Assembly (NCBI GenBank): GCA_009692605.1
Contig: SHYV01000002.1
Span: forward strand, 1-46,616
Origin: Myxococcales bacterium
GTDB taxonomy: Bacteria; Myxococcota_A; UBA796; SXON01
Length of the DNA stretch: 46,616 nucleotides
Direction of reading: 5' to 3'
Notes under the pieces: model-generated
Databases searched by the model: none
What the model was told of the DNA's origin: nothing
What the model saw: the letters and a program-made list of their open reading frames with translations, nothing else
Translations under genes and position numbers: made by a program
Shown: in pieces, positions 18,165 to 32,120 of the stretch
Layout: every line of letters begins with the position of its first letter
Numbering within the stretch: the stretch's first letter is position 1

Positions 18165-20513
18165 ATGTTAACGAGGCCGATGCGGCCGTCATCCGTCTCC
18201 CTTCAGCTCACACTTTGGGGAGCGTTGCTGACCGGCTGCTCCAACGCGCGAACCATCGGTCCGTGGGATCTGGTCCCGACCGGGACCGGGTTCGACATCT
18301 CCCGGTCGGATGGCAGCGAGTTTGTCGGGTCCCTCACCATCGAGATTGGGATTGGCGAGGCGAACGTGGAGTTCCAGGCCGGGGCGTACCGATTCGGCGG
18401 CGAGTCCACCGAGTGGAAGGCCCTGATCCCTTCCGGCGGGCCGAGTGGGCGGGACCCCGCGGTCACCTGGAAGCTGGAGGATGAGCACGGTGACGACTAC
18501 GGGCTGGTCTCGGCCGCTGAGCTACGGGACGGCATCCTCGCCGTCGCGGTCGTCGCCAACGATCCAGAGGTGAACCGGACGCGATTTTCGGTGCCTTGCA
18601 CCGGAAATGACCACTTCGCGGGCTTCGGCCAGCACGCGCAGGACGTCGACCACGTCGGGGAAGCCTTCCCGCTATGGGTGAGCGAGCCGGGCATCGGGAA
18701 GACTGGCGACGAGACGCAGGGCGACGACTGGTTCCTGACCGGTACGAAGCACGCATCCAGCTACCCCGACCCGTTCTTCATCAAGCCGGATCCGCTCGGC
18801 GTCGAGATCGTGACCGAGAGCCGCGTAGAGGTCGACCTCTGCACGGGCGATGACTGGTCCGTGGCCGCGTGGTCGGGGGCCACTGAGATCCTGTTCTACG
18901 ACGTGACGACGCCGATGGAGGCCGTGCAGAAGCACGCGCTTCGGAGCGGGTCGCCGGTGCTGCCTCCGGCGTGGGCCTTCGCGCCGTGGAACGACGCGGT
19001 CGGCGGTGAGGATCGCGTCAAGCACGTCGCCAGCGTGCTGCGGGAGGCCGGCGCGACCGCGGGCGTCATCTGGACCGAAGACTGGAAGGGGGGCGAAGAC
19101 AGCGTCTACGGCTACCATCTAATCCCCAGTTGGGACGTCGACGAGACCCTGTACCCGGACGCCGCCGGGCTGGCCTCGGAGCTTCGTGCCAACGGCTTTG
19201 GTTGGTTCGCCTACTTCCAGCCTTTTTTGGTTGAGGGCACAGATGCATGGGAAGAAGCAGGGGAGTTTGCTATTCGCAGGGAGGACGGTTCGACCTACAC
19301 CTTTGTGGGGATGACCTTCGAGACCACCACGGTGCTCGATCTCACGCGGGAGGATGCGCGCGACTGGGCCAGGGGAAAGATGCAGGCCGCGCTGGACCTT
19401 GGCTTCACGGGGTGGATGGCGGACTTCGCAGAGTGGCTCCCCACCGACGCCGTGCTGGCCGGGGCGGACGCGCTGGCCGCTCACAACGCCTACCCGCTGT
19501 GGTGGCAGGAGACCAACGCCGCCGTGCTCAGCGGCCCTGCCGAATCCAGCGGCGGCGAATCCAGCGGCGGCGAGACCACAGGGGTCCAGTTCACCCGCTC
19601 GGGCTGGACCGGCTCGCCTACGTTGTCGCCGATCGGTTGGGCCGGTGATCAACGCACCAGCTTCGACGCCGACGACGGGTTTCCGACGGTGATCCCGATG
19701 GGGATCGGGGCCGGAATCTCCGGGCTTCCGCTCTACACGCACGACATCGGCGGCTACCAGTCGATCGGGAACGAACCGTCTACCAAGGAGCTGTGGTGGC
19801 GGTGGTGCACCCTCGGGGCGATGTCGCCCATCATGCGCACCCACCACGGCGCGTTCATGGCGGAAAACTGGCAGTTCGACAGCGATGCGGAGACCCTCGC
19901 GCTGTACGTGACCTGGTCACGCGTCCACGGGCGGATGGCACCCTACCGGAGGGGTTTGGCGGTTGAGGCGCAGCGTCAGGGCACGCCTCTGGTCCGCGCG
20001 CCGTTCCTGACATGGCCAGACGAGGACTGGGCGAGGACCGATGCCTGGCTCCTCGGGGACCTTCTGGTCGCGCCAGTGATGGAGGAAGGCGCGGTGTCGA
20101 GGCGCGTGGACCTGCCGGCGGCGGTGGGCTGGTTCGATTTCTGGACCGGGGAGGCCGCGCAGACCGGCACGTTTGACGTCCCGCTGGACAGCATCGCCGT
20201 GTTCGCCCCGGTCGGGGCGATCGTCCCGATGTACACGGACATCGCCGATACGCTGTTCGACGGCCCGCTCTCGGGCCTCGTGACCGCGGACGAGGTCGAT
20301 ACTGGCCGCACCGTGCACGTGTTCGCTTCAGGCGGGGCCTCGGTCTCCGGGCGGTTCGAGGAGGCGGACGGGACCACGTACACGGTGACGGGCACAGCCA
20401 CGGGGCCTGCCGAAGCAACGGTGCGGACCGCCTCGGGAGACGTCGTCGTCGCCGGGTTGACGGTGCAGATCCGCGGGCCAGTGGAGCGGACCTACGCGGT
20501 GGTCGTCCGTTGA
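18165..20513 (+). CDS. Glycoside hydrolase family 31 lipoprotein (alpha-glucosidase/xylosidase-like)
   Basis: The signal peptide has a lipobox (LWGALLTGCS). The nucleophile motif is GWMADFAEWLPTD (cf. xDFGE of GH31). The acid/base region is YTHDIGGYQS, followed by MRTHHG. The length and order fit GH31. Confidence 0.85.
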   Translation: MLTRPMRPSSVSLQLTLWGALLTGCSNARTIGPWDLVPTGTGFDISRSDGSEFVGSLTIEIGIGEANVEFQAGAYRFGGESTEWKALIPSGGPSGRDPAVTWKLEDEHGDDYGLVSAAELRDGILAVAVVANDPEVNRTRFSVPCTGNDHFAGFGQHAQDVDHVGEAFPLWVSEPGIGKTGDETQGDDWFLTGTKHASSYPDPFFIKPDPLGVEIVTESRVEVDLCTGDDWSVAAWSGATEILFYDVTTPMEAVQKHALRSGSPVLPPAWAFAPWNDAVGGEDRVKHVASVLREAGATAGVIWTEDWKGGEDSVYGYHLIPSWDVDETLYPDAAGLASELRANGFGWFAYFQPFLVEGTDAWEEAGEFAIRREDGSTYTFVGMTFETTTVLDLTREDARDWARGKMQAALDLGFTGWMADFAEWLPTDAVLAGADALAAHNAYPLWWQETNAAVLSGPAESSGGESSGGETTGVQFTRSGWTGSPTLSPIGWAGDQRTSFDADDGFPTVIPMGIGAGISGLPLYTHDIGGYQSIGNEPSTKELWWRWCTLGAMSPIMRTHHGAFMAENWQFDSDAETLALYVTWSRVHGRMAPYRRGLAVEAQRQGTPLVRAPFLTWPDEDWARTDAWLLGDLLVAPVMEEGAVSRRVDLPAAVGWFDFWTGEAAQTGTFDVPLDSIAVFAPVGAIVPMYTDIADTLFDGPLSGLVTADEVDTGRTVHVFASGGASVSGRFEEADGTTYTVTGTATGPAEATVRTASGDVVVAGLTVQIRGPVERTYAVVVR

Positions 20514-21745
20514 CCGATCGCCGGTCCCCTGAACGCCGCATCGCGGTTCTGCCGGATCTCGGGCTATGTTGGTTGGATTCCCCGGTACCCTGCTTGTTCG
20601 TCGTTCTGGCCATTCTAGGTTGTCATCCTTTCGAAGACTCAAGTTCAAAAGGCGATAGTGGCAGTTCCCCTGTTCCGCCCGGCCCAGCTGCACTTACGCT
20701 GGGGGAAGCCTGCAACCCCGCCGATGACCTCTGCGACCAGGGCACCGCCTGCTGCACCGAGTGCTGCGAGGGCGACAACACCCCGGTCTGCACCACCACG
20801 ATCAACGAGGCGTGCCCGCTGCCCGACCTCTCTGCGGATCCGCCGCGTTTGCAGGACGGGCTCGTCGAGGAGTGGGCCTACTTTGACGCGGATAACTGCG
20901 CGATCATCGAGGGTTGCGTTCTGGCGAGCGGCTGGCGTCGCCTGCTGGAGTTTGACTTGACCACCCCCAACACCGGCACCGCGGACGTCAAGTTCGGCGA
21001 CCCGAGCAACAACCCGCTCTTCCACTACTCGGAGTGCCACGACCACTTCCACTTCGACGGATATGCAAGGTACTCCCTGCTCGATGGAGTGACGGAGGTC
21101 GCGAAGGGTCACAAGCAGGCGTTCTGCCTCCTGGACTTTGAGGCGTGGACCGAGGATGCGAGGCCGCGGCCCCTGTACACCTGTGAGCGGCAGGGGATCT
21201 CGGCGGGGTGGGCGGACACTTACGGCGGCCACCTCGACTGCCAGTGGATCGACATCACCGACGTGCCTGCGGGCAGCTACACGGTGCACGCCACGGTGAA
21301 CGTCGACAGCATCATCCCCGAGCTGGACTACGAAAACAACGTGGCGGACGCTACGTGGACCGTAGTTGACCCCGTTGATCTCCCGGCGGTGACCGACCCC
21401 TGCGATCCGCCTGCCGGTCGTATTGACGTCGGTCAGGGGGAGGTCAGGGACTGCGGCTGGAGCGTGGCCGGGAACTACACCTGCGCGCCCGGTGAGCCGG
21501 TTGATGCCTCCTGCAGTGGCGGCTGCGCCGACAGCTGCGTGGGCGACCCGGTCATGCGGGTCTGCGAGGGCGCCGACAACCCCTGTTATTCATTCCAAGC
21601 GCTGGGCAGCGACGACGATTCCTGCGGGACGTCAGCTTGCCCGGTCGTGAGCGTGACCTGCCCGGCCGGCGGGGTGGTGACCGTGCTCACGGCCTCGTGG
21701 AAGTCCTCCATCGGGCCGGCCACCTGTGATCCGTTAGTGGAGTAG
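20510..21745 (+). CDS. Lysyl oxidase (LOX)-domain copper amine oxidase homologue, probable lipoprotein, with Cys-rich N- and C-terminal extensions
   Basis: [34 protein letters not shown] and [37 protein letters not shown]...PELDYENNV match by eye human LOX [34 protein letters not shown] and [30 protein letters not shown]...PESDYTNNV. The TTG start overlaps the GH31 stop (TTGA). The lipobox is LAILGC. The exact start is uncertain. Confidence 0.85.
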   Translation: [411 protein letters not shown]

Positions 21746-21748
21746 ATC

Positions 21749-23107
21749 ATGGTAATTTCCATGTTACTCAGTCTGTTATCCGCGGTGGGGCCGGCCCTCG
21801 CGGCGACGACCACCGCTGCCGACTGCCTCGAATGCTGCCAGCAAGCCGGGCTGACCTCGTGCGGCACCGACGTCTTCGTCAATGGCGAGGGAAGCAAGGT
21901 TCAAAAGGAGGGTAGCTCCTGGAGGGTGTCGGGGCTGTACGTTTTGTCCTGTGACGGTCGTGGTTTTTTTGACGACGGGCGCACTGCGCTCTTCTCTTCC
22001 CCGCCGTCCGCTGGAGACCTGGCCAAGGCGTATTCCGCGCAGTGGGCGTGCTTTCGGCAATCGTGTCAGCTCCCGGTCGGCCTTTGTCTGGACGCAGGGT
22101 CAGGTCACGTGTCGGTGTGTGACACCGGGGCCGCTCCGTCAGGGGCTGCGTTCCGGGGCGCGCCGGGTCCTCGACCGGGCCGGTCCACCGCGGCGCCGCT
22201 GCCGGTCTCGGCCGCCGGGCCGGTCGGCGCGCGGCCTGGTTCGTCGGGAGGCCTATCGGTGGTGGTCGCGGGGAGGACGCTCACGGTGGAGCGGGCTCCG
22301 GCTCAGGCGGCACCGGCGGGGGCCGCCGTCGCGCTTCCTGCCCCAGCTCCCGCGCTCCCCCCGGCCGCGCCTCCCCGCGCCGCTCCCGCGCTCCCTCCCG
22401 CGCTCCCTCCCGCGCTCCCTCCCGCGCTCCCTCCCGCGAAGCCCAAGAGCACCGTGCTCTTCGATGACCTCGATGACGACGAGATCCTCGCCGAGCTTCG
22501 GGGCGAGACGAAGCCCAGCGCCGTAGCAGCGGCCCCCCCCCCGGCGGCCCCGTCGGTCTGGACCCCTTCCGCCACCGCGACGTATACGCCGACCGGACCC
22601 GCTACCGGGGGCCCGCCCGCGGGGCCCACAGCGGTGTACTCACCGGCACCCTCGTCCGCTGCTGCGTCGAGCGCAGCGGCGATCACCCAGCTCACCGAGG
22701 GCCTGCCCCGGGACCCCCCGGAGCAGTGCCAGCCTCCCCCCGACGCGCTGCGCAGCGAGTCCCGGAAGCAGGTGATGACCGGGGATGATCTCCGGCTCGC
22801 CAAGGATGCTTCGGGTGCCATCCAGAAGTACCGGGCTGCGATCTCGATGGACTCCTGCAACGGGTACGGCTGGATTGGCCTTGGGGAGTCAGCCATCTTG
22901 CTCGGTCGCCCCGATCTGGCGGTGCGAACGCTGCGCAACGCGACCATGCTCATGCCGCAGCACTACGGTGCCTGGCTGGAGCTCGGACAGGCATATGAGT
23001 CGATTAATGAGGTAGAAGCCGCTATTAGCTCCTATCAGCGTGCTTTGGCGGTGAAGCCTGGGCTCGCCGGGGCGGTCGACGGCCTCGCGCGCCTCGGCGT
23101 GCGATGA
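21749..23107 (+). CDS. Secreted protein with a Cys-rich N-domain, a long Pro/Ala-rich linker (ALPP x4) and C-terminal TPR repeats
   Basis: A signal peptide is present (MVISMLLSLLSAVGPALAA), followed by CLECCQQAGLTSCG... A Pro/Ala-rich segment of roughly 200 aa follows. The C-terminus is TPR-like (GWIGLGESAILLGRPDLAVRTLRNATMLMPQHYGAWLELGQAYESINEVEAAISSYQRALAVKP). Confidence 0.7.
   Translation: MVISMLLSLLSAVGPALAATTTAADCLECCQQAGLTSCGTDVFVNGEGSKVQKEGSSWRVSGLYVLSCDGRGFFDDGRTALFSSPPSAGDLAKAYSAQWACFRQSCQLPVGLCLDAGSGHVSVCDTGAAPSGAAFRGAPGPRPGRSTAAPLPVSAAGPVGARPGSSGGLSVVVAGRTLTVERAPAQAAPAGAAVALPAPAPALPPAAPPRAAPALPPALPPALPPALPPAKPKSTVLFDDLDDDEILAELRGETKPSAVAAAPPPAAPSVWTPSATATYTPTGPATGGPPAGPTAVYSPAPSSAAASSAAAITQLTEGLPRDPPEQCQPPPDALRSESRKQVMTGDDLRLAKDASGAIQKYRAAISMDSCNGYGWIGLGESAILLGRPDLAVRTLRNATMLMPQHYGAWLELGQAYESINEVEAAISSYQRALAVKPGLAGAVDGLARLGVR
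22388..22435. repeat. In-frame perfect tandem repeat of 4 x 12 bp, GCGCTCCCTCCC (ALPP x4)
   Basis: Counted directly. The units lie at 22388, 22400, 22412 and 22424. Confidence 0.9.
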
Positions 23108-23730
23108 CTCCAGCCGTCTGGCACATGCTGCTCGGCGGAGCGTTCGTCCCGTCGGGCGTCGGCGCGCTCGCGTGGGATGACGCCGACCAGCTCTCTGGCA
23201 CCCTCGCGGGTGAATTCGACGGCGTCCTTCGCCCGCCGATCACGGTCTACGCCGGTTGGTTCGACGACCGGAACGCGCTGCTGCTGGACTTCGCGATCGT
23301 GCGATTCACAACATCCACCTGGGCCGACACCCACTCGTTCGACGGCGTTGGATCGGCGCGGCTCGGGGCGGACTACCGGCGCTACCTGCCGTCGGCGCCG
23401 GTTGGGGATGGCGCTGGCCACATCGACATGTACGGGGATCTCGGTGTTTACGGCGTGCTGCCCGCCGCCGCCAACTCCTCCGACGCGTACACCGAGGAGG
23501 ATCAGGCGAGCGCAGACGAGGCATCCGGTGAGCTCCGGGCTCGGATTGGCGGGGTTGGGGCACAGTTTGGGCTTGGCGCTGGCTACCGGATCGGAGGCGT
23601 GGCGGGCGTCACGTTGGGGGTCCGGGGGCTGATGGTCATCCACCGCACTCAGGCGACGCTGGAGACAGGCACGACCTTCGGCTACGTGATCCTGCCGGAG
23701 GGTGCGCTCACGCTGGAGTTCAGGCGGTGA
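23104..23730 (+). CDS. Small exported beta-barrel-like protein (208 aa), hypothetical
   Basis: Its start forms an ATGA overlap with the upstream stop. The N-terminus is hydrophobic. The C-terminal half has Gly-rich alternating strands (GAQFGLGAGYRIGGVAGVTLGVRGLMVIH...GALTLEFRR), reminiscent of small OMP barrels. Confidence 0.5.
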   Translation: MTPAVWHMLLGGAFVPSGVGALAWDDADQLSGTLAGEFDGVLRPPITVYAGWFDDRNALLLDFAIVRFTTSTWADTHSFDGVGSARLGADYRRYLPSAPVGDGAGHIDMYGDLGVYGVLPAAANSSDAYTEEDQASADEASGELRARIGGVGAQFGLGAGYRIGGVAGVTLGVRGLMVIHRTQATLETGTTFGYVILPEGALTLEFRR

Positions 23731-24905
23731 GCACCCATGTTGGGTGGCCAGCCCCGGGAGCGCTGATCCTGACGGCGGCGCTGGTGCACCTCGGGTCCCC
23801 GGCCCACGCCGGAGCGCCTTCGGACGCGCTGGCCCAAACGGGGCGCTTCTCACCGGACCACCCGGAGTCCGCGTACCACTTTGCGGACGAGGTTTTTGGC
23901 GTGATTGCGGACGCGGCGGCGGTCGGTCCGGGCGTGATCGACGGGTTCACGTTCGGGCGCTCGCTGGAAGGGCGAGAGCTTCGGGCCTTCGCTGTACGCG
24001 ATCCCGCGTTTCCCGTCTTCCGTCGCCTGCTCCTGATCGCCAATATCCACGCGCTGGAGTGGATCCCGACCGAAGACGCGCTCGCGTTCTTGCTTGAGTA
24101 CGCTGCGCACCCGGTCCCAGGCGTTGAGCTTGTTGTGGTGCCGATCGTGAACCCGGACGGGCGCGCCAGAGTGGAGGCCGACCTGCGCGCTGGGCGCAAC
24201 CTCTATCGGCGCGGGAACTCAGCCTACGTCGATCTCAACCGCGACTGGTTCGTACACCGCGACAGTCCGGCGATCTGGAAGGCCCTGCTCCCTGGCCTGT
24301 ACACCACTTCGGCCTCCCCGACGTCTCAGCCCGAGACCGTGGCTATCGACCAGCTCCTTTGCCCGGATGCGGACGCCCGGAGTCGCGCGCGCGCCCAGAC
24401 TTACGGCTCCGATGGTCGCCCGCTGCCGGCAGTTTATGGTCTCGCCGTCGGAGCCGAATGTTACCCAGGAAGCGGTGAGTACGGCATCGTGCCCTTCTCC
24501 GCCTTCCTCTCGCTCCACAGCTTCGGCGGGTTCATCTACTACCCGTGGGCCGGCCGTTGGAGGCGACCCGACGTGGTCGAGGGCGACTGGCGGCGCTATC
24601 AGGCGGTCGCCGAGGCGATGCAGGCGGCGATGGGGGCCCACGCCTATCGGCCTCGCCAGCTCGCGCGGTGGGGGTTCTTCTTCCGTGGGCTGGGCATGGA
24701 GATCGACCATGCCTACGGGCAGTACGGAATTCCGTCGCTCCTCGTCGAGACCACGCGCTCTGGTCTGGAGCGGCCGGCGGACCTGGCCACCTACTTCCGA
24801 TGGTACAACCCCCGCACGCCGGACCGGCACGTGCGGGCTGACGTGGACATGCTGTGGGCCTGGGTGACCGCGGTCGGTGAGGTCTGGCCGACAGGGGGAC
24901 AATAA
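23727..24905 (+). CDS. M14-family zinc carboxypeptidase (secreted)
   Basis: The GTG start overlaps the upstream stop (GTGA). A signal peptide is present (...ALILTAALVHLGSPAHA). Zinc and catalytic motifs are present: IANIHALEW (HxxE), VVPIVNPDGR, YVDLNRDW and FLSLHSFGGFIYYPW. Confidence 0.8.
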   Translation: MSTHVGWPAPGALILTAALVHLGSPAHAGAPSDALAQTGRFSPDHPESAYHFADEVFGVIADAAAVGPGVIDGFTFGRSLEGRELRAFAVRDPAFPVFRRLLLIANIHALEWIPTEDALAFLLEYAAHPVPGVELVVVPIVNPDGRARVEADLRAGRNLYRRGNSAYVDLNRDWFVHRDSPAIWKALLPGLYTTSASPTSQPETVAIDQLLCPDADARSRARAQTYGSDGRPLPAVYGLAVGAECYPGSGEYGIVPFSAFLSLHSFGGFIYYPWAGRWRRPDVVEGDWRRYQAVAEAMQAAMGAHAYRPRQLARWGFFFRGLGMEIDHAYGQYGIPSLLVETTRSGLERPADLATYFRWYNPRTPDRHVRADVDMLWAWVTAVGEVWPTGGQ

Positions 24906-24992
24906 ACAACCCGTGACAGCCCGCGCCCTTGCGGCTTCGGTCCGTTCGACTAAGTGGGCCGGCGGTGTGTGGTCTGTCCTGTCCCGCCCGAC

Positions 24993-25017
24993 CTGGTTCG
25001 CCGCTCTGGTTCGCCGC
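24993..25017. repeat. Direct repeat of 2 x 12 bp, CTGGTTCGCCGC, separated by 1 nt, upstream of the ABC operon
   Basis: Seen directly (24993-25004, 25006-25017), 63-87 nt upstream of ATG 25080. A regulatory role is not shown. Confidence 0.85.
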
Positions 25018-25079
25018 CCCGCCGCCCGCCCTCGGGTTGGCGGCAAATCCCAACCTTCTTCTGTTACCCCGGAACGCCC

Positions 25080-26021
25080 ATGATCACGGTTGAAGGCCTC
25101 TCGCACTGGTACGGCGACCGCCGCGCCGTCGAGGGCCTCTCGTTCACCATCCAGCAGAACGAGTGCGTCGGCCTGCTCGGCCTCAACGGCGCGGGTAAGT
25201 CCACGACGATGAAGGTGCTCGCCGGCCTGCTCGTGCCCACCGGCGGCACGGTCACCATCGACGGTGCTGACCTCGTCAACGCGGGCGCAGAGTTCCGCGC
25301 CCGGATCGGGTACCTGCCCGAGGACCCGCCGCTCTACAAAGAGATGACCGTTCGCGAGTTCGTTAGCTACTGCGGCCAACTCAAGGGCATGAAGGCTCGG
25401 GATGTGGAGGCTCGGCTCGACGGTGTGCTCGCCCTCGCGCAGCTCACTGCTCGGCAGCATCAGGTCATTGGTGAGCTCTCACACGGCTACCGCAAGCGCT
25501 GCGGCATCGCTCAGGCCATCATCCACAAGCCGAGCGTCGTGATCCTGGACGAGCCGATCTCTGGCCTCGACCCAAAGCAGATCTTCGAGATGCGTCAGGT
25601 CATCCGCGACCTCGCGAAGGACGCGACGGTGATCATCAGCTCGCACATCCTCTCCGAGATCTCCGAGACCTGCGACCGGCTCATCGTGCTGAACGGTGGC
25701 CGCATCGTGGCGGCAGGAACGGAGGCGGAGCTCGCCGCCCGGGCGGGTGGTGCGAGTCGCGTGACATTGGTGGTGCGGGGCAGCGATGCGGCGATCACTG
25801 CCGCTCTCGCTAAGGCGGGTGCGGTTGGCGCCGATCGGCGTGAGGAGGCGGGGGGCCTCACGCGCGTTCATGTGACGCTTCCAACTGTGTCCAACGGCGA
25901 CTCCCGAGAGAATCTGGTGCGCGCCCTCGTCGAGGGCGGAATCGGGCTGCGTCGCATGATTGAAGATGAGGGAGAGCTCGAGCAGATCTTCCTCGGCCTG
26001 ACCAAGGAGAGTGCACAATGA
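25080..26021 (+). CDS. ABC transporter ATP-binding protein (GldA/ABC-2 type, 313 aa)
   Basis: The internal ATG gives MITVEGLSHWYGDRRAVEGLSF. Motifs are Walker A GLNGAGKSTT, Q-loop, signature LSHGYRKRCGIAQA, Walker B VVILDEPISGLD and H-loop SSHIL. Confidence 0.9.
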   Translation: MITVEGLSHWYGDRRAVEGLSFTIQQNECVGLLGLNGAGKSTTMKVLAGLLVPTGGTVTIDGADLVNAGAEFRARIGYLPEDPPLYKEMTVREFVSYCGQLKGMKARDVEARLDGVLALAQLTARQHQVIGELSHGYRKRCGIAQAIIHKPSVVILDEPISGLDPKQIFEMRQVIRDLAKDATVIISSHILSEISETCDRLIVLNGGRIVAAGTEAELAARAGGASRVTLVVRGSDAAITAALAKAGAVGADRREEAGGLTRVHVTLPTVSNGDSRENLVRALVEGGIGLRRMIEDEGELEQIFLGLTKESAQ

Positions 26022-26743
26022 GCGGCATTTGGCTGATCGCGCGCCGCGATTTCTCGGCGTTCATCAACACGTGGTGGGGCTGCGTCATCCTGTCGTTGAC
26101 GCTGCTCATCGACGGTGTTTTGTTTCAGGCCGTCGCGATGACCGCGACTCCCCGGTATTCGGCGGACGTCCTGACCGACTTCTTCTTCCTCACCGGCGGG
26201 GTGGTGCTGATCGCCGGGGTGTTCACGACGATGCGGAGCTTCGCAGAGGAGCGGCAGACCGGCACCATGGTGCTCATCGAGTCCTCGCCGCTGTCGGAGA
26301 CGCAGGCCGTGATGGGCAAGTACCTGTCCGGCTTGATGTTTCTAGCCCTGCTTCTGGGTCTCACCGCCTACATGCCCGGCATGATCTTCGTCAACGGGAA
26401 GATCAGCGAGCAGCAGATCGCGGTGGGGTACCTTGGGGTGTTCCTGATGGGAGCCGCCGGCATCGCCATTGGGACTTGGGCGTCCGCCATCTCGCGCAAC
26501 CAGCTGTTGTCGCTGGTCATCGCGGCGGTCATCACCGTCTTTTTCGTGCTGTGCTGGATGCTCTCGCGGGTGCTCGATCCGCCGTTCAAGGGGTTGTTCG
26601 CCTACATGGCCTTCTTTGACAAGCAGTTCCAACCCTTTCAGGAGGGGCGGATCAACACCGAGGGCATCGTGTTCTTCGTATCGGTCAGCTTCGCCTTCCT
26701 CCTGCTCGCTACCCGCTCGCTGATCGCCCGGAGGTGGGAATGA
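26018..26743 (+). CDS. ABC-2 type transporter permease (GldF-like)
   Basis: Its start forms an ATGA overlap with the ATPase stop. It has six predicted hydrophobic helices. FAEERQTGTMVLIESSPLS is typical of ABC-2/GldF permeases. Confidence 0.8.
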   Translation: MSGIWLIARRDFSAFINTWWGCVILSLTLLIDGVLFQAVAMTATPRYSADVLTDFFFLTGGVVLIAGVFTTMRSFAEERQTGTMVLIESSPLSETQAVMGKYLSGLMFLALLLGLTAYMPGMIFVNGKISEQQIAVGYLGVFLMGAAGIAIGTWASAISRNQLLSLVIAAVITVFFVLCWMLSRVLDPPFKGLFAYMAFFDKQFQPFQEGRINTEGIVFFVSVSFAFLLLATRSLIARRWE

Positions 26744-28584
26744 GCTCCGCTGGCATGCTTTACGTGATCGGGAGCTTCCTGATCTTCCTCGCCGAGCGCA
26801 TGTTCTCGGGCAACGACGCGGTGCGGTGGCCGCTCGATCTGCTCGGCGTTGCGCTGGTGGTGCTCGCCCTCGTTGGTCGCGCACGCAGCTGGTCCCGTCA
26901 TCCGAAGGCGACCCAGCTTTCGCTGGGTTTCTTCGGCCTCTCGATGTCCTCGGTGCTGTTCTGCGTGGCGGCTTCGAAGGACTGCATAGCGATGTGCGGC
27001 CTTGACGCCGAGACTGCCAAGCACGTGGTCGTCGGGCTGCAGGCGATGGTCCCCCTCGTCTGGTTCGTGGGTGCCCTCCCTGCGCTGGCGATCGACGCGA
27101 CGCTGTCAGCGAGCCCGCACAGCGTGCATCCCGGTCGGCTCCGGGCTGCCCTTGAGGGAGGCCTCGCCGTGGCGCTGGGTCTCGCGATGCTCTTCCCGCT
27201 CAACTATCTGGCTTCGGAGTACAACAAGCGGGTCGACTACGGGTTTTTTAAGACCACCTCGGTGGGGACCTCCACCCGCGCTGCCGTGGACAGCCTCACC
27301 GCGCCTATTCGAGTGGTGCTGTTCTTCCCCCCGTCAAGCGAGGTGCTCCGTGAGGTGCGCCCGTACTTCGACGATCTGGCGGGAGCCAATTTGAGCGTCG
27401 AGGTGATGGATCAGACCATGGACCCCGAGCAGGCCAAGGCGTGGAAGGTCAAGGACAACGGGACCATCGTCATCGTGAAGGGCGAGGGCGACGACGAGCA
27501 GACCGAGTCGGTCAAGCTGGAAGACGACATTGACAAGGCCAAGAAGGACCTGCGTAAGCTGGACAGCAAGGTGCAGACCGCGCTGCTCAAGATCTCCCGG
27601 GACAAGCGTACGGTGTACTTCACTGTCGGCCACGAGGAGCTCTACTGGAAGAGCGCGGCGGACGATCTTTCGAACCTCGACTTCGCCAAGAAGATGCTTG
27701 AAGGCCTGAACCTGAAGGTCAAGGAGCTCAGCGTGGCGACCGGTCTCGCGCAGGCCGTGCCCGACGACGCCGCCATGGTGTTCATCGTTGGGCCGAAGCG
27801 GTTGTTCCTCCCCGAGGAGATCAAGGCGCTTTCCGACTATCGCGAGCGTGGGGGCGCGTTGTTCATCGCGATGGAGCCGTCCAGCGGTCCGGATGATCTC
27901 AGCGACCCGGCGGTCGCAGCGCTCGCTGGGGTCGGATTCGGCGATGTCGCCCTGCTCTCCGACAAAGCCTTCCTTCGGGTGACGGGCGGACCGAGCGACC
28001 GGGCGTTTGTCGGGACCAACAAGTACAGCTCCCATGAGTCGGTGACGACGCTCGGCAAGAACTCGGCGCAGGCCACGTTCATCGCGCCGGGTGTCGGTGC
28101 GCTGCTGGAGCTTCAGGAGCACGCTGGTAAGGTCACCAACGTGTTGAAGGGAATGCCTGAGTGGTGGGCGGACGGCAACGGCAACTACGAGTTTGACAAG
28201 GACGCTCCGGCGGCCGGTCTGGACGGGGTCTTGCCGCCGCCAGCCGAGAAACGTGGCGGCTACGAGATCGCCAGCGTGGCGACTGGTCCGGCCGAGGGCG
28301 GTAAAGAGTGGCGGGCGGCCATCATCGGCGACTCGACGTGGATGTCCAACGGCATCCTCAAGAATCAGGCCAACGCCGTCTATCTGGTCTCCACCGTCGG
28401 CTGGCTGACTCAGGATCCCGCGCTCACCGGGGAGACCGAGACGGAAGAGGACATCAAGATCCAGCATACAAAGGAGGGCGAGGCGATGTGGTTCTACGGG
28501 ACCAGCCTGCTGATGCCGACTCTGGTGCTGCTCGCCGGCATGCTTCGCGTTCGGGCGCGCCGCGCCAAGGGAAGTGAGAAATGA
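26740..28584 (+). CDS. GldG-like ABC-transport auxiliary protein with an extra polytopic N-terminal region
   Basis: ATG 26740 is preceded by GGAGG and overlaps the upstream stop (ATGA). GTG 26734 is an alternative start. About five N-terminal TM helices are predicted. An ABC_transp_aux-like body follows (IRVVLFFPPSSEVL...LSVEVMDQTMDPEQAKAWKVKDNGTIVIV...). A C-terminal TM helix is present (MWFYGTSLLMPTLVLLAGML). Confidence 0.8.
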   Translation: MSSAGMLYVIGSFLIFLAERMFSGNDAVRWPLDLLGVALVVLALVGRARSWSRHPKATQLSLGFFGLSMSSVLFCVAASKDCIAMCGLDAETAKHVVVGLQAMVPLVWFVGALPALAIDATLSASPHSVHPGRLRAALEGGLAVALGLAMLFPLNYLASEYNKRVDYGFFKTTSVGTSTRAAVDSLTAPIRVVLFFPPSSEVLREVRPYFDDLAGANLSVEVMDQTMDPEQAKAWKVKDNGTIVIVKGEGDDEQTESVKLEDDIDKAKKDLRKLDSKVQTALLKISRDKRTVYFTVGHEELYWKSAADDLSNLDFAKKMLEGLNLKVKELSVATGLAQAVPDDAAMVFIVGPKRLFLPEEIKALSDYRERGGALFIAMEPSSGPDDLSDPAVAALAGVGFGDVALLSDKAFLRVTGGPSDRAFVGTNKYSSHESVTTLGKNSAQATFIAPGVGALLELQEHAGKVTNVLKGMPEWWADGNGNYEFDKDAPAAGLDGVLPPPAEKRGGYEIASVATGPAEGGKEWRAAIIGDSTWMSNGILKNQANAVYLVSTVGWLTQDPALTGETETEEDIKIQHTKEGEAMWFYGTSLLMPTLVLLAGMLRVRARRAKGSEK

Positions 28585-29795
28585 GGTCAGTCGCGCTGTT
28601 TGGGACGATTCTCGTCGTCTCTCTTGCATTCTCGTGGGTGAGGTACACCGGGGGTGAGGAGAAGGTCAAGGAGGGCACGATCCTCATGGACGGGAAGAAG
28701 GAAGACCTGCAGCGGGCGAAGTACACCTCGCCCGACCTCACCGTGGAGTACGAGGTCCGAAGCGATGGCATCGGCTCCTACGGCTGGCTCACGGTGTCCG
28801 AGAACAAGAAGAAGAAGGTCCCCGATCCGGCCAAGCCCGGCTCGATGATGGACTCGACCGAGCTCAAGCTCTCCAAGTTCAAGGCGGGCAGCGGGAATGA
28901 CAAGCTCGTGGACGGGCTGGCGCCGCTCATGGCAGTACGCGCGCTCGAGGATGTGCCGGCCGACAAGATCGAGTCGTTCGGCCTGACCGCACCCGATACC
29001 ACGCTCTCCGTCACCATCGGCGGCGCCGAGCGCGCCTTCTTGGTCGGCGGCGAGACCTACGGCACGAAGGACCGCTATGTGAAGGACGCCTTGTCTGGGC
29101 GGATCTATGTCGTGGACGACGAGGTGTTCAAGTCCCTCAAGTTCGCAGCGACGCGGCTCCCGGAGCGCGCTCTCAGCGATCGCAAGCCAGAGGAGATCAC
29201 CGGCGTCTCGCTCGGGCAGGGGGCAAGCACCGCCTCCTGGACCCACAAGAACAAGGACGACAAGGCCGCCGCGCACTGGCAGCGTGACGGCGCCCTTCCT
29301 ACAGCTCCGACCGATGGGGCCACCCCCCTGGAAGGTGAGGCTCCGGCGGCGGACCCCGGCAAGGACGTCACGTTCGCCAACTGGGTCGAGGCTGCGCTCA
29401 AGCTGAAGTCCACGGCGTACGTTCAGGATGGCGACGAGCCCGCCACGCTCGAAGCCGCGTTCGATCTCACCCTTCGGGCCGAGGGCAAGCCGGACCAGAC
29501 GATCCACCTTCTCCACGACGGGGATGATTGGTATGCGCGCAGCGAGTTCACACGGGGGCTGGTCAAGATCTCCAAGGGGCCTGCGGAAGACAGCTACTCG
29601 GACGTGGACGACATCCTCGCCGGCAAGACCCCGCCGCCGAAGGCGAAGCCGGCCAAGCCGGCTGGCGCGCCCACGAAGGCTCCTGGGGGCGACAAGCCCG
29701 ATGCTGGGCCGGGCGGTCGCCCCCCCGGCGGGCCCTCCGGGATGATGCCACGGTCTCCGGGGATGATGCCAAAGCCCGGAAAGCCTGCGGGGTAG
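28581..29795 (+). CDS. DUF4340-like protein, N-terminally anchored (usual partner of GldG-type transporters), with a Pro/Lys-rich tail
   Basis: Its start forms an ATGA overlap. It has an N-terminal TM helix (ALFGTILVVSLAFSW). The body has IESFGLTAPDTTLSVTIGGAERAFLVGGETYGTKDRYV....GRIYVVDDEVF. Position and architecture fit DUF4340. Confidence 0.65.
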   Translation: MRSVALFGTILVVSLAFSWVRYTGGEEKVKEGTILMDGKKEDLQRAKYTSPDLTVEYEVRSDGIGSYGWLTVSENKKKKVPDPAKPGSMMDSTELKLSKFKAGSGNDKLVDGLAPLMAVRALEDVPADKIESFGLTAPDTTLSVTIGGAERAFLVGGETYGTKDRYVKDALSGRIYVVDDEVFKSLKFAATRLPERALSDRKPEEITGVSLGQGASTASWTHKNKDDKAAAHWQRDGALPTAPTDGATPLEGEAPAADPGKDVTFANWVEAALKLKSTAYVQDGDEPATLEAAFDLTLRAEGKPDQTIHLLHDGDDWYARSEFTRGLVKISKGPAEDSYSDVDDILAGKTPPPKAKPAKPAGAPTKAPGGDKPDAGPGGRPPGGPSGMMPRSPGMMPKPGKPAG

Positions 29796-29808
29796 CGGTA
29801 CAGGCTAT

Positions 29809-31323
29809 ATGTGCCGGATGGTTACCTTTTTCCGGGCCGGTTGGACGTCCGGAGTGCTGCTGTCCCTTGTCACTTCGGCGGGCTGCGGCGCGATTACCCT
29901 ACGGGAGGGGGAGCGGCCTCCGGGCGGTGGCCCGCCTCCGATCGTCCTGATCTCGATCGACACCTTGCGGCCGGATCGGGTCGGAGCCTACTCGCCGCGT
30001 ACGAGCACGTTGACGCCCAACCTGGATGCCTTCGCTGATGAGGCGGTGGTCTTCGACCACGCGTACAGCCAGGCCATCCAGACCGCGCCCTCGCACGCGA
30101 GCGTCTTCACCAGCGTGTACCCGAGCGAACAGACGGGCGCTGACAACCAGACGGTCCTCGATGCGTCCCATCCCACAATGGCGCAGGTGCTTGAGGCGTA
30201 TGGGTACAAGACCGGCGCGTTCGTCGCGGGTGGCGACCTTTCGCCCCATCGCCGGTTGAACCGAGGCTTTGGGGTGTACGAGTCGCCGAGGGACTTCGGC
30301 AGCTTCTATCACACCACGCCCAGGGCTATGGCGTGGTTGGATCATATCGACCTTTCAAGTCCATATTTCATGTTCGTCCACAGCTACGACGTCCATTCGA
30401 TTTACCTCAAGCCCACGCCCTTCGGGTACCTGCACGCCGATGTGACCTACGACGGGGCGGGTCAGGTCGCGGCGCGTACCGCCACCGAGCGTGTGATCAA
30501 CGGGTTCATGTACCCGGACTTCGACGGTCTCCTTGACGCTCAGGTGAACCTGCTGCGACCATGGGCGGCGGCCAGCAAGGCTGAAGTTGCGTGGAAGTTG
30601 TCCACGGGAGAGGTCCCGATCCCGGTGACTCCACGCGATCTGGAGCACGTGGGCCAGATGTACGACGGCGCCGTCTCCTACGCGGACGCGATGTTCGGGG
30701 CGCTGATGGCGGGCATCGAGCAGCGCGGCCAGCTGGATCGGGCGATCATCATCGTCATGTCGGATCATGGCGAGCAGCTCGGCGAGCAGGGCATCTTCGG
30801 GCACTGCTGCGGGATCGGCGACGAGGAGACGCACGCCGTCATGATGGTACGGCTGCCCCGCGGGGAGCACGGTGGACGACACGTCGGGGGGTTCGTTGAG
30901 CTGCTCGACGTCTTGCCCACGGTGGCTGATCTCGTCGGGGCGCGCGCGCCCGCAGACATCGATGGGCGCAGCTTCGCGGCGGCGGTGCGGGACGAGCCGT
31001 TTCAGGGCCGGCCGTACGCGCACAGCGAGGGCTCGCAGCTCTATAGAGTGGTCAGCGTGCGGGGCCCGGAGGGCAGGCTGACGTACGCCGGCTTGCCGCC
31101 GTCGTCCGCTCACTTGCCTGGCATCGTGGCTGCGGCGCGGTTGGACGGCCCCGGGTTTCTGGCGTCGGCCGGGTTGGCGCCAGAGGGGCGCCGGGCGCTG
31201 CGGGAGGAGATGGTGGGGTGGTTGAAGTCGCTGACGCCACCGCCGGATGCGCGGAGCGCGCCGTTGCCTGACAGCCTGCGAAGGTCGCTGCGGGAGCACG
31301 GGTACTTCGAGGTGGCGGAGTGA
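29809..31323 (+). CDS. Sulfatase-like hydrolase/transferase (alkaline-phosphatase superfamily) lipoprotein
   Basis: The lipobox is LVTSAGC. Motifs are IVLISIDTLRPDRVGAY, AYSQAIQTAPSHASVFTSVYPSE and IIIVMSDHGEQLGEQGIFGH. The position of the usual C/S-x-P-x-R formylglycine motif reads T-A-P-S-H. Confidence 0.8.
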   Translation: MCRMVTFFRAGWTSGVLLSLVTSAGCGAITLREGERPPGGGPPPIVLISIDTLRPDRVGAYSPRTSTLTPNLDAFADEAVVFDHAYSQAIQTAPSHASVFTSVYPSEQTGADNQTVLDASHPTMAQVLEAYGYKTGAFVAGGDLSPHRRLNRGFGVYESPRDFGSFYHTTPRAMAWLDHIDLSSPYFMFVHSYDVHSIYLKPTPFGYLHADVTYDGAGQVAARTATERVINGFMYPDFDGLLDAQVNLLRPWAAASKAEVAWKLSTGEVPIPVTPRDLEHVGQMYDGAVSYADAMFGALMAGIEQRGQLDRAIIIVMSDHGEQLGEQGIFGHCCGIGDEETHAVMMVRLPRGEHGGRHVGGFVELLDVLPTVADLVGARAPADIDGRSFAAAVRDEPFQGRPYAHSEGSQLYRVVSVRGPEGRLTYAGLPPSSAHLPGIVAAARLDGPGFLASAGLAPEGRRALREEMVGWLKSLTPPPDARSAPLPDSLRRSLREHGYFEVAE

Positions 31324-32120
31324 AGCCATGCGCGCGGAGCCCGGTGTTTGCGGGCGTGGTGGGGCTCGCGGGCGTTGCTGGGCTCGCGGGCGTTGCTGGG
31401 CTCGCGGGCGTTGCTGGGCTCGGGCTGGCCGGCTGTCGCGAGCCGGCATGGTCGGTCACCGGCGCGCTCGAGCCCACACGCCTACAGTTGGACATCGATC
31501 ACGACGGCAAGGTGGCGGCGGCTGAGTATGCCAGAGTTGCGTTTTCCGCTCCGCTGTTCGAGGATGTCGACCGGGACGCGAATGGCGATCTGGATCTGAA
31601 GGAGCTGGAGGCGCTGGTGTATTCGACGGACCCATCCAGCTTCTTCGAACGGCCTCACGTCGAGGTGTCCGCATCAGCGGCCGCTCGCCACCCAGGCTCC
31701 GGCCCCAAGCCGGGTGCCGGCCCCAAGCCGGGCGGGAAGGGCCCCCCACCGCCAAGCCAGCACGGCCCGAACCGGCCTCGTGGCGCGACGGCGAATGGCT
31801 CGGGGGCCCGCAGGCCGGTCAGCCGAGCGGCGGAGCTTGTTCCGCCAGATAGTCCGGCTTCGGGGTCTGGAGATCCGGGACGGACCGAGGCGGTGAAGCC
31901 AGACGCCTACTATGTGCTGCTGATCCTGCGGGAGGAGATCGTGACGGTCGCCCCGGATGTGGCTGTTCCAGCGCGTGAGGAGCTCGAACACCTGGGGCGA
32001 AAGGGCTCGCTGGTCAGTCCGGAGGCCGCGGCGATGCTGCAGCGGCTCGAGATCGCCAGCGCTGCGGCGGGCCTGGATTTCCCGGAGGGCCTTCGAGCGC
32101 CGGTGGTTCCTACCCGATGA
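31320..32120 (+). CDS. EF-hand calcium-binding lipoprotein with a repeat-expanded signal peptide
   Basis: The GTG start overlaps the sulfatase-like stop (GTGA). The N-terminus is MKPCARSPVFAGVVGLAGVAGLAGVAGLAGVAGLGLAGC (lipobox). EF-hand loops are DIDHDGKVAAAEY and DVDRDANGDLDLKELE. Confidence 0.7.
   Translation: MKPCARSPVFAGVVGLAGVAGLAGVAGLAGVAGLGLAGCREPAWSVTGALEPTRLQLDIDHDGKVAAAEYARVAFSAPLFEDVDRDANGDLDLKELEALVYSTDPSSFFERPHVEVSASAAARHPGSGPKPGAGPKPGGKGPPPPSQHGPNRPRGATANGSGARRPVSRAAELVPPDSPASGSGDPGRTEAVKPDAYYVLLILREEIVTVAPDVAVPAREELEHLGRKGSLVSPEAAAMLQRLEIASAAAGLDFPEGLRAPVVPTR
31362..31422. repeat. In-frame perfect tandem repeat of 3.4 x 18 bp, GGGCTCGCGGGCGTTGCT (GLAGVA), inside a signal-peptide h-region
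   Basis: Counted directly. Copies lie at 31362-31379, 31380-31397 and 31398-31415, with a partial copy at 31416-31422. Confidence 0.92.

Follow-up and report, generated by a model that had tools for sequence, protein, structure and literature searches.

In animals, the mechanics of connective tissue, fibrosis and metastasis all depend on the chemistry of lysyl oxidase (LOX). We describe here a LOX-family gene from an uncultured lineage (Myxococcales bacterium, contig SHYV01000002.1 of assembly GCA_009692605.1), which lies on the + strand of a 46,616 nt stretch of DNA; this whole stretch is hereafter called the window, and its numbering is used throughout. The animal enzyme used for comparison is human LOXL2 (5ZE3, whose construct begins at residue 318), in which H626, H628 and H630 are metal ligands, K653 and Y689 are the precursors of the lysine tyrosylquinone (LTQ) cofactor, D549, L550, E722, D724, N727 and N728 are Ca2+ ligands, and all 22 Cys are paired (PMC5899467). 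Bacterial and archaeal LOX keep the three-His core and the LTQ residues, with the first His of the animal motif missing (Grau-Bove et al., 2015; PMC4448552). Likewise, myxobacterial LOX retain the Lys, the Tyr and all three His, along with six of the ten Cys of animal LOX, of which archaeal LOX retain only two (Enami-lab authors, 2018; PMC6508830). Both the conserved cofactor residues of myxobacterial LOX and the Cys-rich C-terminal domain of a Sorangium LOX have thus been published before (PMC4448552; PMC6508830; PMC6452851). The only biochemically characterized prokaryotic LOX that we found in the literature searched is HTU-LOX, from the archaeon Haloterrigena turkmenica, reported in 2019 as an active Cu-dependent amine oxidase, sensitive to beta-aminopropionitrile and of broad specificity, with substrates that include taurine, histamine, aminoglycosides and polymyxin (PMC6452851).

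The gene in the window has the following parts, where aa are residues of the open reading frame (ORF) translation:

20510–21745, + strand: whole gene for a LOX-family lipoprotein, 411 aa plus stop (ORF listing; Pfam Lysyl_oxidase)
20510–20623, + strand: signal peptide ending in the lipobox I-L-G-C (aa 35–38, nt 20612–20623), with C38 as the predicted lipidated N-terminus
20624–20710, + strand: low-complexity tether rich in Ser, Gly, Asp and Pro (aa 39–67), variable in length and sequence across relatives
20711–20815, + strand: N-terminal Cys-rich mini-domain (aa 68–102), with C68, C75, C81, C82, C85, C86, C94 and C102 (alignment and structural model)
20816–21358, + strand: lysyl oxidase catalytic domain (aa ~103–283; Pfam, family profile against LOXL2, Foldseek)
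20825–20830, + strand: D106 and L107, likely remaining Ca2+ ligands; their PDL motif aligns to LOXL2 D549/L550 in the profile alignment
21038–21052, + strand: copper-binding H-x-H-x-H (H177, H179, H181), by alignment to LOXL2
21113–21115, + strand: K202, predicted LTQ lysine, aligned to LOXL2 K653
21221–21223, + strand: Y238, predicted LTQ tyrosine and, in the precursor state, fourth ligand of the metal; aligned to LOXL2 Y689
21320–21340, + strand: Ca2+-site segment with E271, D273, N276 and N277, pairwise aligned to LOXL2 E722/D724/N727/N728
21359–21742, + strand: C-terminal Cys-rich beta-sandwich module (aa 284–411) with 12 Cys (structural model, HMMER and Pfam scans)

Pfam comparisons returned PF01186 (Lysyl_oxidase) as the sole match of the protein, at aa 140–281 and far beyond chance (score 117.4 bits, with the threshold at 20.4; E 8.8e-34), and the same model was matched by all 80 relatives scanned. 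Human LOXL2 was also the only sequence match in the PDB, with E 4.5e-23 from the single sequence and E 3.8e-46 from an 80-sequence family profile, which aligned from the PDL motif through NNV; in the family alignment, the LOX domain starts at a conserved CPLPDL motif. An AlphaFold2 (AF2) model built with the 80-sequence alignment had a mean pLDDT (predicted local distance difference test) of 88.2 and a pTM (predicted template modelling score) of 0.80, being confident from residue ~60, and its top Foldseek match was again 5ZE3 (E 3.8e-14; 217 columns, 31% identity).

A preliminary description of this DNA, made by eye, had proposed that the ORF retains the full copper and LTQ signature, and the five peptides it quoted are all in the translation (aa 68–94, 172–192, 197–209, 228–257 and 270–278, the last being PELDYENNV). 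Both HMMER and pairwise alignments bear out its assignments: the three putative copper-binding His, H177, H179 and H181, fall exactly on LOXL2 H626, H628 and H630; K202, in the motif GHKQAFC, on K653; and Y238, in the DTY motif, on Y689. The misalignment of these positions that had been envisaged as a possible objection was thus not found for any of the five residues, and in PELDYENNV the residues E271, D273, N276 and N277 fall on residues of the LOXL2 Ca2+ site. In an alignment of 80 relatives, K202 and Y238 are invariant (80/80), and each of the three His is present in 77 sequences. These data support the view that the window protein is a LOX homolog with intact Cu-binding His and LTQ Lys and Tyr, as judged from sequence and a predicted structure.

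The similarity with LOXL2 and other animal LOX and LOXL proteins thus comprises the PF01186 domain, with 41.7% identity over 144 aa of the core, the HxHxH motif, the LTQ Lys and Tyr, the Ca2+-site residues, three identically placed disulfides and the predicted fold. The three disulfides, out of five in the catalytic domain of LOXL2, correspond to C130–C176, C136–C244 and C206–C225 (573–625, 579–695 and 657–673 in LOXL2); of the two that are missing, the 663–685 pair is replaced by A212 and W234 and the 732–746 pair is absent, together with the C-terminal segment ES3. Additionally, S174 occupies the position of the first His in the animal motif WxWHxCHxHYH. Unlike animal LOX, the window protein also lacks SRCR domains and a propeptide; where those enzymes have a eukaryotic secretion signal, it carries one of bacterial lipoprotein type, and it adds a different N-terminal Cys-rich segment of 35 aa and the C-terminal beta-sandwich module. 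The full set of features taken to define animal-type LOX (all ten Cys in five disulfides, the first His, and a propeptide or SRCR domains) is not found in it. Conversely, the missing disulfides and first His are the known myxobacterial pattern (PMC6508830; PMC4448552), and the residues retained are exactly those reported for myxobacterial LOX in PMC6508830. The lipobox, linker, Cys-rich segment, LOX domain and C-terminal Cys-rich domain are shared with myxobacterial LOX such as Sorangium P0056 and P0057 and S. cellulosum WP_012233967.1 (cited in PMC6452851), and the protein can be aligned end to end with its myxobacterial relatives at 40–81% identity; its N-terminal segment contains four Cys more than theirs, and the N-terminal insert of ~120 aa present in the Sorangium proteins is missing from it. 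HTU-LOX, compared here through publications, resembles the window protein in its prokaryotic LOX domain, its cofactor residues and its N-terminal hydrophobic signal, and its activity is that predicted here, although it comes from an archaeon and its simple architecture does not include the Cys-rich accessory domains.

The preliminary description had also noticed a lipobox and Cys-rich segments on both sides of the catalytic domain, and both observations hold. With Ile at −3, Leu at −2 and Gly at −1, the sequence ILGC, at the junction with the mature protein, was counted as a lipoprotein signal, the pattern used for bacterial lipoproteins being [LVI][ASTVI][GAS]C after a hydrophobic core. A lipobox regular expression was matched by 62 of the 80 relatives, most of the others having xAC or xGC; C38 is a Cys in 74 of them, with a gap in the other six, and is invariant in an alignment of 20 sequences. 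The AF2 model gave pLDDT values below 50 over the signal region, as expected for a signal peptide, and of about 48–76 over the tether.

The TTG start codon at 20510 overlaps the stop codon of the preceding gene as TTGA; in-frame TTGs at codons 1, 22 and 29 are all possible starts, and the mature protein past C38 is identical from all of them. Relatives lack the N-terminal extension, and their signal peptides have 13–25 aa, so that translation may in fact begin at the TTG of codon 22 (nt 20573). With codon 22 or 29 as the start, the length of the signal peptide would come down to that seen in the relatives. The first 11 residues (window 20510–20540) contain two Arg-Arg pairs, at aa 4–5 and 9–10, reminiscent of a signal for twin-arginine translocation (Tat). 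We rejected Tat export from these pairs, given that the extension is not kept in relatives; the Sec/signal peptidase II route is more plausible, since the protein has 26 disulfide-forming Cys.

The N-terminal Cys-rich segment was modeled with high confidence (pLDDT about 96) and has no match in Pfam or NCBIfam at E <= 10. Its residues C75, C85, C94 and C102 are invariant in the 80 relatives, and the clade of the window protein has eight Cys in the segment. Comparison with the published CysRRep (bioRxiv 10.64898/2026.06.07.730663) was negative: judged by eye, the spacing C-x6-C-x5-CC-x2-CC-x7-C-x7-C is unlike Cx6-9Cx5-7Cx8-11Cx7-8CC. The family profile aligned aa ~65–107 (window 20700–20830) to the last ~40 residues of SRCR4 of LOXL2 (5ZE3 chain 191–233), immediately ahead of the PDL motif that both proteins have. 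Matching Cys, and not homology, probably drew the alignment out to this point, but the two segments are placed alike with respect to the catalytic domain. There are 26 Cys in the mature protein, distributed as 8, 6 and 12 among its three parts, each an even number, and these counts are compatible with complete disulfide bonding, as in LOXL2, and with an extracytoplasmic location.

The C-terminal module is about 110–125 aa long in the family, and of its 12 Cys nine are invariant and two nearly invariant in the 80 relatives. Modeled alone, aa 284–411 gave an all-beta structure (AF2; pLDDT 92.3, pTM 0.87). Searches for known domains in the module found nothing in Pfam at E <= 10 or in NCBIfam at E <= 1. 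The motif GDPxLRVC...DD...G.Y.VL had suggested a PPC domain (PF04151), an assignment that is unsupported by sequence, and a weak PPC match in relative P0130 falls outside its two copies of the module; weak matches to WAP, CARDB and X25 in two to three of the 80 relatives (E about 0.005) were dismissed as noise. Foldseek retrieved nothing from the PDB at E <= 0.001, and the weak top matches were the N-terminal domain of DeCLIC, the collagen-binding domain of ColH, the C-terminal domain of KP-43 (1wmd), CBM6 and a GOLD domain. The weak match to the ColH domain (3jqw) had a probability of 0.99, but E 0.059 (TM (template modelling) score 0.45–0.48, root-mean-square deviation 3.2 A over 94 columns). 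Like the ColH collagen-binding/PPC and CBM6 domains, the module is a predicted all-beta sandwich, about 110 aa long, that is attached to secreted enzymes; it has no sequence relationship to them and may contain up to six disulfides, which are absent from those domains.

When 1.84 billion representative proteins were scanned exhaustively with HMMER, the module was found in 201. Pfam scans of these proteins, a multi-context alignment and a local profile search showed that it follows LOX domains in one to three tandem copies, precedes ADYC domains (PF20032), as in WP_204484365.1 from Archangium primigenium, or follows an M1 aminopeptidase; it also occurs in a 1263-aa protein with LTD and LOX domains and in proteins made almost wholly of three copies. 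Two or three copies are present in 35 of 145 representatives, and the family alignment shows a duplication in relative P0055 (other module proteins noted were P0155, P0164, P0192, P0208, P0216, P0229, P0132, P0145, P0123, P0127 and P0150). The motif C...CGW...C.PG...C.GDP.LRVC.G...C...DD.CG..CP...CP.SG.Y.VL is kept in all these contexts in a multi-context alignment; C335 and C406 are lost together in the ADYC-context copies, which suggests that they form a disulfide pair. Its distribution thus shows that the module is an accessory domain of secreted myxobacterial proteins, both autonomous and mobile. As it recurs in different secreted enzymes and weakly resembles beta-sandwiches with binding roles, we infer by analogy a role in binding or targeting.

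Together, these results make it probable that the gene encodes a native myxobacterial extracytoplasmic amine oxidase of the LOX family, lipid-anchored and disulfide-rich, with a C-terminal module that positions the enzyme on its substrate. The protein would be exported, cleaved by signal peptidase II before C38 and lipidated at this Cys, and the flexible tether would then hold a three-part disulfide-bonded body at the membrane surface. By sequence and model, this body consists of a small Cys-knot-like segment, the LOX catalytic domain and the C-terminal beta-sandwich and, as suggested by the Cys counts and the model, it would arise by oxidative folding. The catalytic domain contains all the residues required for binding of Cu(II) and formation of LTQ: from their strict conservation and the chemistry of the family, H177, H179 and H181 would bind Cu(II), and K202 and Y238 would self-process to LTQ; the mature enzyme would oxidize primary amines, from peptidyl-lysine or others, to aldehydes with release of H2O2 and NH3, while the C-terminal module would place it on a polymeric target, either substrate or matrix. 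Our best guess is that the substrates are lysine-containing proteins and polymers of the envelope or the extracellular medium, and not a dedicated small molecule.

Several points weigh against this interpretation. The Leu at −2 of the lipobox is non-canonical, though hydrophobic, and the start codon is ambiguous. None of the fold matches of the C-terminal module reaches significance (best E 0.03, TM score below 0.5), so that its binding function is by analogy only. In addition, the genome gives no clue to the substrate, because no partner is conserved beyond close relatives, and the literature searched contained no functional study of any bacterial LOX, those of myxobacteria included, or of the ADYC domain.

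The preliminary description regarded prokaryotic homologs as sporadic, which does not agree with their distribution: a homology search with the window protein retrieved 367 homologs, and there are at least 578 relatives in species-representative genomes (one genome per species), the family being common within one phylum. Essentially all of the best 80 of these belong to Myxococcota or Bradymonadia, including many from Sorangium, together with Sandaracinaceae, Kofleriaceae, Haliangiales and Polyangiales, and several of these genomes contain more than one copy. The closest genome representatives, at 68–72% identity, are metagenome-assembled genomes (MAGs) from lakes and other environments, and some homologs have already been named 'lysyl oxidase family protein' by NCBI. 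The window LOX is therefore an ordinary member of a large myxobacterial family that has already been reported and annotated. The contigs of four loci with close LOX relatives at 47–72% identity (L011, L013, L014 and L029) carry titles such as 'Bifidobacterium breve', 'Klebsiella pneumoniae' and 'uncultured Enterobacteriaceae'; these MAG records look mislabelled, as their titles conflict with all other matches being myxobacterial.

Two neighboring genes immediately flank the LOX gene:

18165–20513, + strand: GH31 glycosidase gene (Pfam GH31 domains), with lipobox LLTGC, overlapping the LOX start by 4 nt
21749–23107, + strand: gene for a TPR/Pro-rich protein (Pfam TPR), 3 nt past the LOX stop, with signal peptide, N-terminal part rich in Cys, Pro/Ala-rich repeat and C-terminal TPR repeats

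They are part of a tightly packed run of 11 + strand genes (18165–32120) separated by −4, 3, −4, −4, 48, −4, −10, −4, 13 and −4 nt, which encode the GH31 lipoprotein, LOX, the TPR protein, a 208-aa protein, an M14 carboxypeptidase, an ABC ATPase, an ABC-2 permease, an ABC_transp_aux/DUF4350 protein, a DUF4340 protein, a sulfatase and an EF-hand protein. From its layout, the run looks like a single operon for secreted or envelope enzymes and a Gld-type ABC transporter. The order GH31-LOX-TPR-unknown-M14 is common to the relatives at 68–72% identity, with the TPR/Pro-rich gene next to LOX only in close relatives (L001 and L003), whereas among the loci examined the relatives at 46–55% identity were in unrelated gene contexts. 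We thus rejected the existence of a conserved partner or substrate gene adjoining LOX, since the order holds only at >=68% identity.

Among the alternatives, the protein could be a broad-specificity oxidase of small amines, acting in nitrogen scavenging, in H2O2 production or in the inactivation of amine antibiotics during predation and competition, and not in cross-linking. The relaxed specificity of HTU-LOX (PMC6452851) and the packing of the gene with those for degradative exo-enzymes (GH31, M14 carboxypeptidase and sulfatase) agree with this possibility, which we nevertheless consider somewhat unlikely: that gene context is not kept in more distant members of the family, the active site of LOXL2 is surface-exposed and suits peptidyl lysine but not small amines (PMC5899467), and the appended binding-type module argues for a polymeric target.

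Myxococcota are known for their protein-rich matrices and multicellular development. The concentration of the LOX family in such a phylum, the full catalytic signature and the predicted tethering to the surface are all in line with an animal-like function, in which the enzyme would oxidize lysines in matrix, fruiting-body or spore-coat proteins to cross-link them and the C-terminal module would recognize the matrix. Additionally, the best-probability fold matches of the module include the collagen-binding domain 3jqw, and an algal LOXL has been proposed to cross-link a proteinaceous cell wall (PMC6508830). However, the fold similarity is not significant (E 0.06), no candidate substrate gene is conserved in the vicinity, the gene for the Pro/Ala-rich protein downstream accompanies LOX in close relatives only, and Grau-Bove et al. 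judged the cross-linking of bacterial collagen-like proteins to be unlikely (PMC4448552). We therefore regard a dedicated matrix or spore-coat cross-linker as unlikely.

A more novel reading is that surface-tethered myxobacterial LOX cross-link, through lysine-derived aldehydes, either proteins of their own matrix or spore coat or those of the envelope of their prey, being targeted by a hitherto undescribed disulfide-stapled beta-sandwich module shared with ADYC proteins and M1 peptidases; they would then correspond, in bacteria, to the matrix cross-linking of animals and might even be its evolutionary source. We offer this only as speculation, and as decidedly improbable in its entirety. To our knowledge, no structure of LOX in its active state exists, and recombinant animal LOX are difficult to produce; a bacterial LOX that is compact, has 42% identity to the LOXL2 core and retains the Cu, LTQ and Ca sites and three disulfides could be a tractable model for LTQ biogenesis and a cross-linking biocatalyst, and the C-terminal module offers a practical way to look for the target of LOX in a phylum known for multicellular behavior and predation. 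As a genomic observation, in turn, the gene is one more member of a family reported between 2015 and 2019 and changes little alone. What is new here is modest, and consists of the description of the module as a mobile beta-sandwich without a Pfam model that is common to LOX, ADYC-domain proteins and an M1 peptidase.

That the protein could be a catalytically dead member of the LOX fold, a lipoprotein with a purely structural or binding role, is very unlikely. Native activity of HTU-LOX was undetectable in its host (PMC6452851), and three of the 80 relatives lack all three His while keeping the Lys and Tyr; nonetheless, all the catalytic, Ca2+-site and core disulfide residues are present in the window protein and are invariant, or nearly so, in the family, and such conservation of the catalytic positions implies purifying selection on catalysis. 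In the three relatives, the His triad is replaced by T-Q-R (two sequences) or V-S-L (one), and these proteins may represent forms of the LOX fold that bind no copper or are inactive.

Finally, it is scarcely credible, and effectively refuted by the present data, that the gene was recently transferred from an animal or another eukaryote, or that it is an assembly contaminant, with its signature being of foreign origin: although LOX is best known from animals and the core is so close to that of human LOXL2, the protein carries a bacterial lipoprotein signal, the 4-nt overlaps between starts and stops fit a bacterial operon, the locus is syntenic with those of relatives at 68–72% identity, the family is deep, down to about 40% identity, with several paralogs per genome across Myxococcota, and the G+C content at third codon positions (GC3) is 0.81, within the 0.78–0.90 of neighboring genes. 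The comparison of composition with the flanks, which had been suggested as a check for horizontal acquisition, thus gave no sign of recent transfer, and recent horizontal transfer was also rejected on the grounds of the operon-like overlaps, the synteny and the deep multi-paralog family. On this comparative evidence, we conclude that the LOX gene is a member of a family long resident in Myxococcota and not a recent import from animals.

Some minor features of the locus deserve mention. The G+C content of the window is 65–73% throughout; GC3 falls to 0.37–0.57 at window 20555–20690 (LOX codons ~16–60, comprising signal peptide and linker), compared with 0.8–1.0 in the rest of the gene, and this stretch contains rare codons such as cta, tca, agt and aaa, in a genome of 68% G+C. 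Downstream of LOX, the TPR gene contains a 12-nt tandem repeat (22347–22438) of 7.7 copies, encoding (PPAL)n and ending in PPAKPK. In the locus of the distant relative P0016 (L004/L005, 9017–11518), the region 2 kb downstream of LOX encodes an FG-GAP protein that contains a Cu-binding MopE domain, a neighbor that could be a link to copper handling.

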